64,000 bases of DNA from Paramecium tetraurelia (lineage: Eukaryota), in assembly GCA_000165425.1 (NCBI GenBank), contig CT868023.1:1-64000 (forward strand), in the 5' to 3' direction. Below are positions 2,914 to 38,342 of this stretch, one piece after another (the stretch's first letter is position 1; the number at the start of each line of letters is the position of its first letter). The position numbers and the translations under genes were made by a program. Below the pieces are notes generated by a model. It ran no database searches and was not told the origin of the DNA. It worked only from the letters and a program-made list of their open reading frames with translations.

Positions 2914-3063
2914 NNNNNNNNNNNNNNNNNNNNNNNNNNNNNNNNNNNNNNNNNNNNNNNNNNNNNNNNNNNNNNNNNNNNNNNNNNNNNNNNNNNNNNN
3001 NNNNNNNNNNNNNNNNNNNNNNNNNNNNNNNNNNNNNNNNNNNNNNNNNNNNNNNNNNNNNNN
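2914..3063. other. Assembly gap (150 N)
   Basis: Run of n characters. Confidence 0.99.
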
Positions 3064-18998: not shown

Positions 18999-19348
18999 TC
19001 AATCTTCTTTTACTATCCAACATTTTTCACATACATCATAATCACATTCTTAGCATCTATATGCTCCTCCAGAAATCGAGCCTCTGCAAACATCGCAAGA
19101 ATGATATTTCAAAGTAGGAACATATTTCAATCTATTATTGATAAAATATACTCATGTCCGCCCCCACATATATCTCCCATTACAGGAGGCTATCTGCATT
19201 TTACACAATAATAGAGATTGCATTAGACACATCCATACCTGCACATTGTGTCAACTGGACCGCATTGAGCACATTTCTAGATATGCTTCTTCACCCATTG
19301 TAGCTTATGATTATTTTGACACATATCATTTGCTGCCCAATTAATCAT
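18999..19348 (-). CDS. Small Cys/His-rich protein with two C1-like/ZZ-like zinc-finger modules
   Basis: CQNNHKL..CAQC..YGCVQCNLYYCVKC and CGGGH.LKY..SCDVC..YRCQECDYDVCEKC; one 20-nt intron. Confidence 0.8.
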
Positions 19349-19391
19349 TATTTTTACTATATTATCAATATTAAAATTATCACATAAATCA

Positions 19392-19796
19392 ATGAATAAT
19401 CAAGAATCTCTTGATAAAGTCTTACAGCTAGGATAACAATATGAAGAATAGTATTAAATCTATTTCAAAGTAGGATCTAACAAAGAAAATAAATATAAAA
19501 TGCAATTGAAATTGTAAATCAAACTGAATAGCAGATTTTAAAAGACAGAAAAGAAGTTGAAAAATACCTATAACCGAAATGATAAATTTGATTAAATTAT
19601 ACATTTGATGAATCAATTCAAAGATTTATCACTATATGCATTTCGACAATCTGCGTCTATTTTACCTTATTAAGTTTATTTTATTTAGAAAGAAGATAAA
19701 GCTTCTTTAATTTAAGTTTATTTCAGCAAAAAAGAATACATCTTCATCTTTTTTTGCTGTGGTTTATATAATGCATATAGTGTTTCTCTACAATGA
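19392..19796 (+). CDS. Hypothetical 134-aa protein
   Basis: Code-6 ORF MNNQESLDKVLQLGQQYEEQ...; no homology recognised. Confidence 0.35.
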
Positions 19797-20089
19797 TTTC
19801 AATAATTTAATCAATTAAAATTTAGTTGATTTCGATGTTTAGGATGATAACTTAAAACTATATTAGAATTTCATTAGTTATCTTATTCAAATTTAACTTT
19901 ATATAAATTAAATAAAAATTATGCCTTTTGATTTTTTTTATTTACAACAGAATAATAGATAGTTATTAATTAACTTAATTAAAGTATCAATAATAGAATT
20001 ACTCTTTGATCTTAAATTCTGATTTTGTATTAAAAAATCCTAAATTTATATTATATCATATTATCAAATTAAAGGTAATATTAATTTTA

Positions 20090-21118
20090 ATGCAAGCTTA
20101 ATCAATAGGAGAAGTATTTAGTTTAAATAATTTAGGATTGCATGGAACTGTTTGATGCAAATACTTATGGTGATGGTCAAGAAAGAAACTGTGGATTATG
20201 TTATAAGCCTCCAACTTATGAAGAAATCGAATAAGAAAGTAGAATAAACAATAAAAAATTGATTCCCAATGATAAAGAAAAATTCATTGAGCTTATACTA
20301 AAGGAACAAGTAATAAATAATATTAATATGATTAGTAAGTGAGATTGGATAAGAACGTTTAAGATTTGTATGGATAACTTAATTATTCAGGAGTAGTCGA
20401 GGAATTAATCCATGCCGAAATATTTAAACATTTTGGCTATGATGATTGCCCATTAAATCATAAATTGTACTATGCCTTGACTAGGAAATACATTAAAGAT
20501 CCTGAATTGAAGAAGTAAGTATTTTTTTGGAGAAATAATGTAATGCATGGATCCAAACTTGGATTGAATGAATAACCACCTGAAATCCAATTGTTGAATT
20601 TAGAATAGTAGAAGGTTGCTTTATAAGAATTAATGCTTAAAAGCCATAAGGAAAATAGATTGCTTGTTGCTTTTGCTGGCAGCATAACATGACCTCCTTA
20701 TCGTGAGGCCATGGCTGATTATATTGCATTTGCGTAGAAGTATAAGGAGATTTGCAAATGCATCATCGTCTACATAAAGGAAGCTCATTTCGTTGAAAGA
20801 GATTAGGAAGGGAAGTTTGTAGATGGATGGCCAATTGGCTTTTACGATTATGAATATCCATAACACAAAAGTCAGGAAGATAGATTAAAGATGGCTAAGA
20901 CGCTCAAGGAGGAGTACTCGATTCCTGATGAGTTTGAGATTTATTTGGATATATTCCCTTAAAATTAATTTGATGAGACATTTGGAATTTGGCCAGATAA
21001 CATGGTTGTTTTCAAGGAGCTTAAGTTTATCTGGAGGGGAATTGTAAACTTAGATGGATCAAGAGATAAATATCATTCTAAGTTATTGGAGGATCACTTA
21101 AAGTAACTTAAATATTGA
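20090..21118 (+). CDS. Iodothyronine deiodinase-like selenoprotein (UGA-Sec at 20690-20692)
   Basis: After two short introns the frame reads ...LLVAFAGSIT(TGA)PPYREAM...VYIKEAHF..DGWPIG..HKSQEDRLKMA..FGIWPD, matching the deiodinase motifs FGSCTUPPF, YIxEAH..DGW and HxxxEDR; the frame stays open for ~140 codons past the TGA. Confidence 0.9.
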
Positions 21119-21131
21119 GTTGATTAACATT

Positions 21132-21201
21132 AGTAATCATTCACATGACTTCTATTGGTAGAAATTGGAATATTAATAGAATGAAATATATGATGATTAT
21201 T
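21132..21201 (+). promoter_or_regulatory. Eukaryotic SECIS element in the 3' UTR
   Basis: Helix I AGTAATCAT/ATGATTATT; core ATGAC (21145-21149) / TGAA (21182-21185); 11-bp helix II TTCTATTGGTA/TATTAATAGAA; apical loop GAAATTGGAA with unpaired AAA. Confidence 0.88.
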
Positions 21202-21225
21202 TTACTTAATAATTCAATATGAATT

Positions 21226-23034
21226 TCAAACTGAAATGGATGCTACTTGGGATTTCAGATCTGAAATTTGGGAAGCAGCTTTGTTATTTTACATCACAAT
21301 TTCTTTGTTCACCTTTCTTAGTTCTCTAATTTCAAGTGCTAGTAATTTAATGTTTTTTCCATAACTGAATAACAGTTACTTTGTCTCTGTTAACTCTTAC
21401 TTTATCTTAGCCTTTTCAGATTGTTCATTTTCCGTCTCGATTTTATGAGCCTTGATACTAGCTTGCAATGTCTTAATCAAGTCTTACAAACCTTTAGTTT
21501 ACTCACTAAAATTATAGGAATGCTTACTTCAAACCCTTGATCTCATTGTTGTTATTCTGAATTCTCGACTATCTATCTTGGATCATTTGTTCAAGAATAG
21601 TTTATTTCTGAATTAATTGCCAATGTTATTCGACTAGGTAATATATTAAGGAAGATTGAGATCTACATTCAATGTTAATGTAACTTCCAAATACATATAG
21701 CGAAGCAAATATCCTTTGCATTGTTGCCAAATATAATCCAAAGAGACCTACATCTGCAGCAACAACAGTGCCTAAATTAAAGATCTTCTCTTAAACATCT
21801 GATTAACTTGTTTTTAATTTCTTTAATTGATTCTATCTTTCTTTTTAAAATGCTTCTCTTTCATTTGCATTTACAATCAAATTGGCCGTAAATTGACTCA
21901 AATTAAATGGATCTGATTTTAATAGATTAGCCGTCTGTTAGGAACGAGAAGCCATTGACTACACAAAGGTCTTTAGACCATCTGTGGAATCTGGATTTTC
22001 TATATGTTCTAGTCTTCCCAAGAATTATGTTCCTTTAACAAAATTGTTAGCCTCAACGATGATTGGATCCAACCATTCATTTGGATTCAAAAAGGCATCA
22101 AAATACTTAATGATTTGAGTCTTTACTACTTACTCAGGACAATCATTTGACAATTTCTTGAATAAATCAACTTGTTTTGTTAACAACTTCATTTATGATT
22201 GATATTAAATAGTTGAACATCTTATGACTTGTGGAATTACCAATTTGAATTAACACAATGCAAAATATATAGATTTTTTTGACAGACAGAGATTCACAAT
22301 GTCTTTAGAACTCAAAAATGAAATTAATTGGGTTTTAATCTTAGTTGCTATGATTAATTCGAAGGTGGAAAAGGGAAAATCAGATTTCTCATTGAGATTC
22401 AAAAAGTTTGATGTTTTTATTTTTTTAATGGCATTTGTCTCCTTTTACAATTTAACTAAATCTACTTGAGAATTCTTCAATTTATCAGATAATTGAAGTT
22501 CATTATTCTTTATACATATTATCTCTTATTCCTTTAGTGTTAACAACTCTTACTTTTATGCTAATTATTCTTTATACAGACAAGCCTACTTTTCGAACTC
22601 TTATGCTTATTGAGCGAGTTATTGATGCAATGCTTATGATTCATTAGTGAGCTAATCAAATAGAATGCCTATTATACTTCTTGAATTTATTTTTCATAGG
22701 CTGTCTCTAAACTCGTCACGAATTACTCATGATTGATTGTTTTATGCTTTAAATCTTCGTATGCTTTTTTTAATATATTAAATATCTAGTGCTCCTTCTA
22801 CAAGACTGAAGCGTATTTCTTTAACTTCTTTAAGTTATGATTTGCGTCGGAAATCACTTCAAGAATTTTATCTCGATTCCTTAGCAATGCCTGATACATC
22901 ATCTCTACCCTTTCATCTTTTGATTTCTGTTGATCCAACTCAAACAAAAATGGGTTCAAATCAGAATCATCAGACTCAACAAACGACTCGTCATCTTCAG
23001 GATATTCGATACTTTCAAACTAAAAATTACTCAT
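21226..23034 (-). CDS. Hypothetical coiled-coil protein
   Basis: MSNFQFESIEYPEDDESFVESDD... to ...SDLKSQVASISV*; heptad-rich. Confidence 0.7.
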
Positions 23035-36349: not shown

Positions 36350-38342
36350 TCAATCATTCCCAATTGTTTGTAACATTTCGATGATTTCTTCAATTGCTAC
36401 ATCATTGAGATTTTGAACTTTAATTTTTTTACTCTTAATTTCAATAGCGTTCTCGTAAGGTGTGTTACCCCATCGATCTCTTTCGCTAAAGTTGAACTTG
36501 GCAGTAAATCTCAAAAATCGGATAATTTTTGAGTTGGTTGCCATAACAGCCATGTGGCCTATGTTTCTGCTATCCACATTCACGAATTCATTAAGATTCT
36601 TAATACCTCCATGAAATATGAGTTCTAGAATTTATAAATCTCCTTTCAGTCCAGCAGTCAGTATAAGATCCACCATTACCTAATGAGGTGCTTCGATTAC
36701 TCCTCCATTTTGTTAAAAGAAGAGAATCAATTCTTTATCCCTTGATATGAGGATGTCATACATAGGGGAATACCCAAGGTAATCAACAGGATTTATATTA
36801 ACATGGACTTCTTCAATTAAATACTTAATAATTTCTATTTATTTTGAAGCAGCAGCTAAATGAAGAATAGTTCTGCCATCAAAATCTGGAATGTTAAGAT
36901 TTCCTTCGTTTTTTCTAAGATCTTTAATTAAATCCAATTATCCTGTGGTAGCCAAAAAGCAACCTAAATTTGGTATGATATATTTATTCATAATATCCAT
37001 GTTCTGACTAATCTATTCATCTCCTGAAGTCTTTTACAGAGTTTCTAAGATAGTTTAAATGAAATGTTATTTCTGACCCTCAAATTTTTCAAATTGTCTA
37101 ACTGATTCTGTTTCCCCCTATAAATTTTATGGAAATTTCTCAATAATTTCCTAATTCGTAAATCCCTTTCCAAGGAGATATCCAATCTTTGCCAAGGCAC
37201 TCTCAGGAGTGATATCATATTAGACGATGATGCCATTCATTATCTTTTTAAAATTCTTGATTGGTTATCCTTTGATACATTGGGATATTTAAATTAAGAT
37301 GATTCCCTTTGAAGATTGAGCTTGCAATAAGGCATTATATAAATCTTAGTTATGGGGCATTTCACCAAAATGATAGCATTCCAAAATACAGCATCTTAAA
37401 TTAGGTGTACTGAATATATGTTTGATGTGTTCAACACTTGTGAATGGAGTGATCTTTAAAATAATGACATCTGTTATGAATTGAGGTGATAACTCAAGTG
37501 TGCTTTCTTCACTGCTAAACATTTGTTCTCCTCTTCGTAAAACTAAGTGCCATTTGATGTCGATGTTGATTCCAAATTCAACCAGATTGGGAAAATTTGG
37601 ACTTTCAACACAATCAAGGGAATCACATTTCAATTATCGACATCTGTTGGCTCTATAAGCTGTGGTCCATAACGATAAGCACTTCTGGGATGAGAAAGTG
37701 TCCAGCCAAGATCAGAGAGTCAAGGATATTTTGGAAGGCATCATTACGCATAAAGGACAAGGGAATCAAGGAACCTGTGATAACAACTGTTTTTTATAGG
37801 TTTTCAAGCATAAAAGACAGGTTGGTACCAAGATAAGTTATTGTTGCAATTCCGCTTAGAATTACAAATGCACTAAATTTCTCATAGTTTTCCTTTATTA
37901 TCTCAGCAATGTGTCTGATATCTGCATAGGACTAAAGTTAGATGACTTAAACTTACAGTTTATCTTGAGTTTGTAATTTAATCAAGCTCCATCACCTTAT
38001 AAACTGTCCTTCTTCCATATTCAGAAACGGGTGTTGTCAAGCAACCATCTTAGTTGTGATACTATTTATGATATTCACAAATACTTGTGTGTATTCCAGA
38101 TCACAAAGAAAGGATATGTGTTTCATTCGTTATTCTAGTCTTCCTTTGACAACAGTCATGTGTTATTCATTAAGTTCACCTTCTGCTGCTGTTGCTCCTG
38201 AAGCATAGAGCAGGAGGACCTTACGATCATTAAGAACCTATAGGTTTTGGTTGGCTCCAATAGCTCCAGTTATTTGCGAAAGAGTGGAATCTCGTCTAGA
38301 TTCTCTTCTTCGAAATATTGGAGATTCTGTGTCCGAACTCAT
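36350..38342 (-). CDS. L-asparaginase-like protein with C-terminal ankyrin repeats (ASPG/60-kDa lysophospholipase architecture); catalytic motifs degenerate, apparent frameshift near 37660
   Basis: LSFMLENLQKTVVITGSLIPL..RNDA..N, IPEV, SPNFPNLVEFG; ankyrin motifs DFDGRTILHLAAS and DRWGNTP. Confidence 0.85.

Follow-up and report, generated by a model that had tools for sequence, protein, structure and literature searches.

Positions 1 to 64,000 of contig CT868023.1 from Paramecium tetraurelia (assembly GCA_000165425.1, forward strand; hereafter the window) contain a deiodinase-like gene at 20090..21118. The gene comprises three exons and is interrupted by an in-frame TGA at 20690-20692. An earlier note, made from the letters alone, had proposed that this TGA encodes selenocysteine (Sec) at the catalytic position of the enzyme. 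Here, we examine the gene, its transcripts, its relatives, and a candidate selenocysteine insertion sequence (SECIS) located just past the terminal stop codon.

Gene structure and transcription

The features of the gene and of the downstream hairpin are collected in Table 1. Translation followed the ciliate code (translation table 6), in which UGA is the sole stop. The frame 20291..20692 ends in ...NRLLVAFAGSIT, followed by the TGA at 20690-20692, and the segment 20693..21118 continues as PPYREAMADY...VYIKEAH...DGW...HKSQEDRLKMA... for 141 codons up to a second TGA at 21116-21118. With the internal TGA read through, the three exons yield a product of 8 + 58 + 260 = 326 residues. An open frame of 141 codons is not significant by itself in a single-stop code; the weight is carried by the profile match and the conservation described below. 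Upon re-reading the frames, the introns, and both TGAs, every coordinate and motif given in the earlier note proved correct.

Table 1. Features of the deiodinase-like gene and of the hairpin past its stop codon (positions in the window)
Feature	Position	Strand	Remarks
5′ untranslated leader	20053..20089	+	approximate transcript start: X3 RNA-derived contig begins at 20053; raw-read depth climbs from bin 20028-20084
Exon 1	20090..20113	+	ATG at 20090; MQAQSIGE, 8 codons; orthologs annotated from MQ[AS]QSIG[EN]D
Intron 1	20114..20135	+	22 nt, GTA...TAG; absent from X3 contig; loose read ends before 20136
Exon 2	20136..20309	+	58 codons; open reading frame (ORF) 20010..20342; matches P0004
Intron 2	20310..20335	+	26 nt, GTA...TAG; absent from X3 and X8 contigs; raw-read depth 0 at first base
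Exon 3	20336..21118	+	260 codons plus stop; end of N-terminal helical domain and deiodinase (thioredoxin/peroxiredoxin-like) domain
In-frame TGA, proposed Sec codon	20690..20692	+	residue 185 of 326; codon 119 of exon 3; motif GSIT-U-PPYR
Terminating TGA	21116..21118	+	paralog P0003 and ortholog fragment P0123 share the same ...LKY end
Candidate SECIS	21132..21201	+	starts 14 nt past the stop; core 27 nt past the stop
Helix I (lower)	21132-21141 / 21192-21201	+	10 bp
5′ internal loop		+	CAC, between helix I and ATGA
ATGA core	21145-21148	+	followed by one opposed C/U
Helix II	21150-21160 / 21171-21181	+	11 bp
Apical loop	21161-21170	+	10 nt, begins G-AAA; AAA at 21162-21164
3′ core TGA	21182-21184	+	UGAA on the 3′ side

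Transcription was assessed in four RNA runs, two of them stranded oligo-dT runs (X21 and X22) used as raw 58-nt reads and two used as RNA-derived contigs (X3 and X8). In the stranded runs, 1328 and 1542 raw reads were placed, 1258 and 1474 of them with at least 99% identity, and depth was resolved in 57-nt bins. All coverage of the gene was oriented as plus-strand RNA, with the opposite orientation over the convergent neighbor. This neighbor, on the minus strand, has its stop at 21226-21228 and its ORFs at 21226..21528 and 21503..22693, leaving a spacer of 107 nt between the two genes.

Depth was about 35-120 across approximately 20142-21110 in both stranded runs and was continuous over the internal TGA, with 35 and 76 in the bin containing the codon and 80-125 in later bins. 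No base differences are listed in the reads, so the TGA is present in the RNA. Both splice junctions are documented by loose read ends: those before 20136 spell the end of exon 1 (six reads in each run), and those before 20336 spell the end of exon 2 (five reads in X21, nine in X22). Consistent with this, both introns are removed in the X3 contig and intron 2 in the X8 contig. The earlier note had considered that the TGA might be spliced out or that the transcript might end early; the stranded reads instead continue past the codon.

Family membership and conservation of the in-frame TGA

With Cys substituted for Sec, the exon-3 product matched the Pfam family PF00837 (T4_deiodinase) with an E-value of 1.6e-15 and 57.5 bits, against a cut-off of 27. 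The match covers residues 99-236 of the exon-3 product and runs across the TGA; weak AhpC-TSA and Redoxin signals were recorded alongside it. When all Protein Data Bank sequences were searched with phmmer at E up to 1, the sole matches were mouse DIO2 (9h48, E 8.7e-10) and mouse DIO3 (4tr3, E 6.2e-9), both of which are Sec-to-Cys active-site mutants according to their entry titles. The TGA aligns with the Cys of GSATCPPF in 9h48 and of GSCTCPPF in 4tr3. The motifs Y-I-x-E-A-H, D-G-W, and P-Q-H-x-S-x-E-D-R are all present and aligned with those of DIO2 and DIO3, and the resemblance of the predicted protein to deiodinases is far beyond chance. The last of these motifs we take to lie within the segment that tells deiodinases from peroxiredoxins. 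Catalytic roles for residues of Y-I-x-E-A-H, DGW, and PQH are reportedly assigned in the DIO3 structure paper. By alignment, the predicted active site retains the DIO3 catalytic constellation intact: Ser/Thr flanking the Sec position, the Tyr, Glu, and His of Y-I-x-E-A-H, the Trp of DGW, and the His of PQH.

The AlphaFold2 model of the exon-3 part, for which 46 aligned relatives served as input, gave a predicted local distance difference test (pLDDT) score of 94.1 and a predicted template modeling (pTM) score of 0.91. Foldseek placed DIO2 (9h48, E 3.5e-12) and DIO3 (4tr3, E 1.5e-11) on top, with target-normalized TM scores of 0.76 and 0.79, respectively, followed by thiol peroxidases and peroxiredoxins at about 1e-6. 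The first ~75 residues of the modeled part form a helical bundle (20336-20560, residues 1-75 of P0002) that matches no Pfam family. Its recurring motifs are E.LR.S..YQ, FG[YF], Y..DPE, and [FY].[RK].N, and the domain is common to the Logan/JGI relatives P0012, P0035, P0042, P0044, P0047, P0024, P0055, and P0082 at 24-41% identity. No N-terminal membrane anchor was found, the highest 19-residue Kyte-Doolittle mean being 0.57 in P0004 and 0.86 in P0002. Vertebrate DIO1-3 do carry an N-terminal transmembrane anchor, which is a trait of the vertebrate enzymes and not of the Pfam family; in the Paramecium protein, the helical domain stands at the start of the modeled exon-3 part in place of the anchor.

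In an ESM-Atlas feature search, the closest neighbor of the truncated ortholog was its own Ciliophora cluster, followed by clusters labeled mostly Nucleocytoviricota. Two scans of viral contigs, prompted by these labels, found no relative.

An exhaustive HMMER search of cluster representatives returned 108 proteins at E up to 1e-3. By our own count, about 46 of them are short proteins whose match begins within the first 12 residues, at query positions 124-163, just past the Sec site; another four are N-terminal pieces that end just before it. We aligned 17 of the matches with the query, and 10 of these relatives are full-length sequences that span the site. The Sec column holds Trp in six of the 10 and Cys in four, and three N-terminal fragments in the same alignment end just before the column. 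The Trp-bearing sequences are automatic predictions on Logan or JGI contigs, and this protein-level Trp would reflect gene callers translating TGA under a code in which it specifies Trp.

Nucleotide-level relatives were sought by scanning metagenomes with two peptide patterns that exclude the Sec site. The 270 pattern matches were reduced to 85 by tblastn confirmation, 80 of which were kept, representing 79 distinct loci (L001-L079). Opposite residue 119, 75 loci have TGA, and TGC, TCG, TTA, and CGA occur in one locus each; besides that codon, the aligned segments contain no in-frame stop. The scan yielded distant, mostly bacterial-like relatives and no Paramecium or close protist DNA: most of the loci have a G+C content of 0.55-0.72, and most matches share 21-34% identity with the window protein. 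The 75 TGA loci are probably the bacterial deiodinase-like selenoproteins known from the Sargasso Sea (PMC1088965). The loci show TGA at this single position to be the rule in the family. TCG (Ser), TTA (Leu), and CGA (Arg) could each reflect a sequencing variant or an inactive form; TTA and CGA are each one base from TGA.

Closer relatives were found in Paramecium itself. A search for proteins of similar length gave seven matches among 230 candidates, five of which are annotated Paramecium proteins of 180-184 residues that all end exactly at GS[IY]T. One, 97% identical across the part in common, is from P. octaurelia, two are from P. primaurelia, and two are from P. sonneborni. The sixth, P0003 from P. 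primaurelia (308 residues, 67% identical), skips exactly the ten residues spanning the codon before resuming the frame up to the shared ...LKY C-terminus; such a gap is what a gene caller would yield when inventing a 30-nt intron to dodge a termination codon. An environmental contig supplied the seventh match, a C-terminal fragment. Extending the search to shorter proteins additionally returned P0123, a ~90%-identical ortholog of 135 residues that starts with MADYIAF and ends with ...LKY. P0123 and the truncated P0005 lie on the same 411,640-nt P. primaurelia contig, which indicates one gene annotated as two. In the fragments P0014 and P0105, Trp occupies the Sec site and PPYR follows in frame. 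The proposed Sec codon is retained in at least three paralog lineages.

The available P. octaurelia, P. primaurelia, and P. sonneborni annotations thus truncate, split, or mis-splice the gene at the putative Sec codon, as the earlier note had predicted for standard annotation. That note had also looked to orthologs for the state of the codon and for possible loss of conservation beyond it. The Paramecium orthologs and paralogs keep both the codon and the downstream frame, with the same C-terminus in P0003 and P0123.

The same annotations can be read at face value, with the internal TGA acting as a true stop. The gene would then encode a 184-residue protein, and the downstream frame would either be untranslated or yield a second, independent product of 135 residues starting at the ATG of MADYIAF. 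UGA is, after all, the standard stop of the Paramecium code, the models in the three species stop at GS[IY]T, and the C-terminal part is modeled on its own in P. primaurelia. Moreover, the 3′ hairpin discussed below is unrecognized by Rfam and is only a putative part of the mRNA. However, models of this kind are the output of automatic callers for any selenoprotein gene. Termination would cut one compact domain (pTM 0.91) right before its catalytic residue, and the 184-residue part that it leaves matches no Pfam family with E up to 0.1. Beyond the codon, a 67%-identical paralog and a ~90%-identical ortholog preserve the frame up to the same C-terminus, and the aligned codon is TGA in 75 of the 79 distant loci. 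We therefore consider termination at 20690-20692 to be very improbable.

A candidate SECIS past the terminal stop

The hairpin at 21132-21201 has every element of a eukaryotic SECIS, as seen by eye and then with a pattern scan of our own. RNAfold includes helix II in the minimum free energy (MFE) structure of the 112-nt 3′ untranslated region (UTR). When the 79-nt piece is folded in isolation, both helices form, with an MFE of -14.7 kcal/mol compared with -14.1 kcal/mol for the SECIS-like pairing when no credit is given for the G.A quartet. The scanned pattern consisted of ATGA, one nucleotide, a helix II of at least 8 bp, AA at 9-14 nt past the core, one nucleotide, and GA. It occurs twice in the 64-kb window when both strands are considered, and only the match at 21132-21201 has a proper lower helix. 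In 100 first-order Markov sequences with the composition of the window, the number of matches per window averaged 0.61 for the bare pattern and 0.04 when a helix I of at least 7 bp was included, while 0 of 100 sequences contained both helices at the observed lengths. A match this good, on the right strand and within 100 nt of the stop, is very unlikely to have arisen by chance.

The element also resembles SECIS sequences known from another ciliate. Those of Tetrahymena thermophila, as given in Table 2 of PMC2612030, have AUGA, AAA 12-13 nt further on, and UGAA on the 3′ side; the window hairpin is alike, with its AAA 13 nt on. A hint of conservation comes from the fragment P0018, which is 84% identical over the C-terminus. 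Its predicted translation reads the terminal TGA as Trp and continues as ...INHSHDFY, where the window UTR reads ...SNHSHDFY in the same frame (21135-21155). This apparently conserved stretch spans the 3′ part of helix I, the CAC loop, the ATGA core, and the start of helix II.

The second pattern match, at 37690-37735 on the plus strand, is antisense within a minus-strand ORF (36350..37711; ankyrin-repeat-like by eye) and has a lower helix of 2 bp; we regard it as background. Elsewhere in the window, a run of 150 N at 2914-3063 marks an assembly gap or a masked stretch.

Read-through of the UGA could also proceed without selenium, with a near-cognate or suppressor tRNA inserting Trp or Cys and the hairpin being irrelevant. 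Some ciliates do read UGA as Cys or Trp, according to PMC4967479, and Cys forms of the protein exist, in four of the 10 aligned full-length relatives and one of the 79 loci. Against this, UGA is the sole stop in Paramecium, and the gene itself ends on one. A SECIS-like element of this quality directly past the stop is not expected by chance, and the family overwhelmingly carries UGA at a single site, with none elsewhere in the aligned segments, which is a Sec signature. Furthermore, Tetrahymena, another oligohymenophorean ciliate, has tRNA-Sec and SECIS-bearing selenoprotein genes (PMC2612030). Selenium-free read-through is, in our estimate, likewise very improbable.

We instead favor, with a probability of roughly 0.8, a single gene encoding a 326-residue soluble deiodinase-family selenoprotein in which the UGA at 20690-20692 is decoded as Sec185 under the direction of a SECIS. 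The claim in the earlier note that this TGA is a Sec codon draws support from the alignment with DIO2 and DIO3, the 75 of 79 loci with TGA, the Paramecium homologs, the unbroken RNA coverage, and the SECIS-like element. The exon structure, RNA running across the UGA, the assignment to the family, retention of the UGA, and the occurrence of the hairpin are established by the data. The hairpin would be part of the mature mRNA and function as a SECIS, and selenium would be inserted at the internal codon.

Several observations weigh against this assignment. In the two stranded runs, raw-read depth drops to roughly 10 over 21111-21167 and then to 0.02 and 0.37 over 21168-21224, which does not establish that most mRNAs hold the whole hairpin. 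The convergent neighbor shows a like decay inside its own coding end (24, 16, 8, 2.8, 0), which suggests that 3′ ends are under-represented in the libraries. Although the X3 and X8 contigs extend across the full spacer, they merge the two convergent genes, and the bridging reads are assignable to neither; a contig over two genes is no proof of a single transcript. If these joins were real transcripts, either the two 3′ UTRs would overlap or one of them would be unusually long for Paramecium. The fold energy of the isolated hairpin is only moderately unusual, being reached by 10 of 300 shuffles. Neither 19000-23000 nor the 141-nt slice 21100-21240 matched any Rfam SECIS model at E up to 10; the only Rfam matches there were chance miRNA and snoRNA hits. 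The apparent conservation of the element is seen at the protein level, in one translated fragment, P0018. Lastly, ARAGORN detected no tRNA gene, and hence no tRNA-Sec, within the 64-kb window.

Among the metagenome loci, Rfam identified no SECIS family in six of low G+C, and our SECIS pattern had no match on the plus strand of the 79 loci, most of which look bacterial, so that they provide no positive control. A literature search found no paper on the Paramecium Sec machinery.

Proposed mechanism and relation to known systems

In the mechanism that we propose, the SECIS-like (form-1-like) hairpin at 21132-21201 in the 3′ UTR would direct the UGA at 20690-20692 to be read as Sec at residue 185. 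The second UGA (21116-21118), just 14 nt before the hairpin, would terminate translation, and its closeness to the SECIS may be the reason. Distance alone may not decide between stop and Sec, however, because ciliate thioredoxin reductases have a Sec codon near the SECIS, as reported in PMC4967479. The next in-frame TGA past the stop (21146-21148) is part of the ATGA core itself; recoding of the terminal UGA would add just ten residues, one Sec and nine others.

In the resulting protein, the N-terminal helical domain would precede a peroxiredoxin-like thioredoxin fold bearing GS-x-T-U-PP, Y-I-x-E-A-H, DGW, and PQH-x-S-x-EDR. Its selenolate could attack the halogen of an iodinated or otherwise halogenated phenolic substrate to form a selenenyl halide, which would then be reduced by thiols. 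We favor such deiodinase-type halogen abstraction because the predicted DIO3 catalytic constellation is intact, although we place the odds between this chemistry and a general selenol redox or peroxidase role at about even. We know of no thyroid hormone system in ciliates. The substrate suggested in the earlier note, halogenated aromatics from prey, is speculative.

Taken on its own, the proposal that the protein is a real selenoprotein but a peroxiredoxin-like selenol oxidoreductase or peroxidase in redox defense, and no dehalogenase, is a serious rival that we rate below an even chance. It must contend with the retention of all three motifs that we take to be deiodinase-specific, Y-I-x-E-A-H, DGW, and PQH-x-S-x-EDR. 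In addition, DIO2 and DIO3 score six orders of magnitude above any peroxiredoxin. Nonetheless, thiol peroxidases and peroxiredoxins are the next fold matches after DIO2 and DIO3, and weak AhpC-TSA and Redoxin signals are present. A redox role has also been proposed for the bacterial deiodinase-like proteins, where thyroid hormones are not expected (PMC1088965).

Compared with vertebrate DIO1-3 (PF00837; 4tr3, 9h48), the Paramecium protein shares the fold, GS-x-T-U-PP with UGA at the Sec position, and the three motifs; the 3′ UTR SECIS of DIO1-3 has a candidate counterpart in Paramecium. Core identity is just 21-23%. Beyond the helical domain described above, the differences from DIO2 and DIO3 include a longer segment between EAH and DGW (FVERDQEGKFV) and an Ile before T-U, where DIO2 and DIO3 have Cys or Ala.

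Deiodinase-like selenoproteins outside animals are already known, and the novelty that the earlier note attached to the gene was overrated. According to Lobanov et al. 2007 (PMC2375036), Dictyostelium discoideum has a Sec-containing homolog of thyroid hormone deiodinase with a eukaryotic SECIS; like the Paramecium protein, it is a protist Sec homolog with no known substrate. Dictyostelium belongs to a different supergroup, and the SECIS described there is of type II and has a mini-stem of great length. In the Paramecium element, by contrast, AAA lies in a simple 10-nt apical loop; the comparison is by description. The bacterial deiodinase-like selenoproteins from the Sargasso Sea (Zhang et al. 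2005, PMC1088965) belong to the same Pfam family and have UGA at the same position. Their SECIS lies immediately past the UGA, and they are without the N-terminal helical domain. As in Paramecium, UGA serves as both the sole stop and the Sec codon in Tetrahymena thermophila, whose selenoprotein genes have an AT-rich 3′ UTR SECIS (Coyne et al. 2008, PMC2612030). The six selenoproteins listed in that report are two GPx, three TrxR, and SPS2, with no deiodinase homolog among them. Neither a deiodinase homolog nor a selenoproteome of Paramecium came up in our full-text literature search; an earlier mention is possible. What appears distinctive for the Paramecium gene is the predicted N-terminal helical domain, which is conserved, and the retention of the putative Sec codon in at least three paralog lineages.

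A broader reading joins these observations. The P. aurelia complex would have at least three deiodinase-like paralogs from whole-genome duplication, all of them with UGA-encoded Sec, forming a eukaryotic subfamily, so far undescribed, with the N-terminal helical domain and FVE[RK]D...GWP[IR]G as its hallmarks. These paralogs may be the main or only selenoproteins for the sake of which Paramecium keeps the Sec machinery, because all five annotated P. tetraurelia GPx genes are listed without Sec in a survey of ciliate GPx (PMC7409322). They may act on iodinated tyrosine derivatives from algal or bacterial prey. Taken as a whole, this combination is unlikely. Were it true, it would point to iodotyrosine or thyronine-type metabolism or signaling older than animals.

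Together, these findings correct an annotation error that recurs across sequenced P. aurelia species, in which the catalytic domain is hidden at the putative Sec codon. With one UGA proposed to encode Sec and another to stop translation, the gene would offer a convenient and tractable way to examine position-dependent UGA decoding. It also brings a ciliate branch, bearing a new N-terminal domain, to the problem of the role that deiodinase-family selenoenzymes play where thyroid hormones are lacking. RNA interference by feeding and easy culture make the function of a deiodinase homolog testable in Paramecium.

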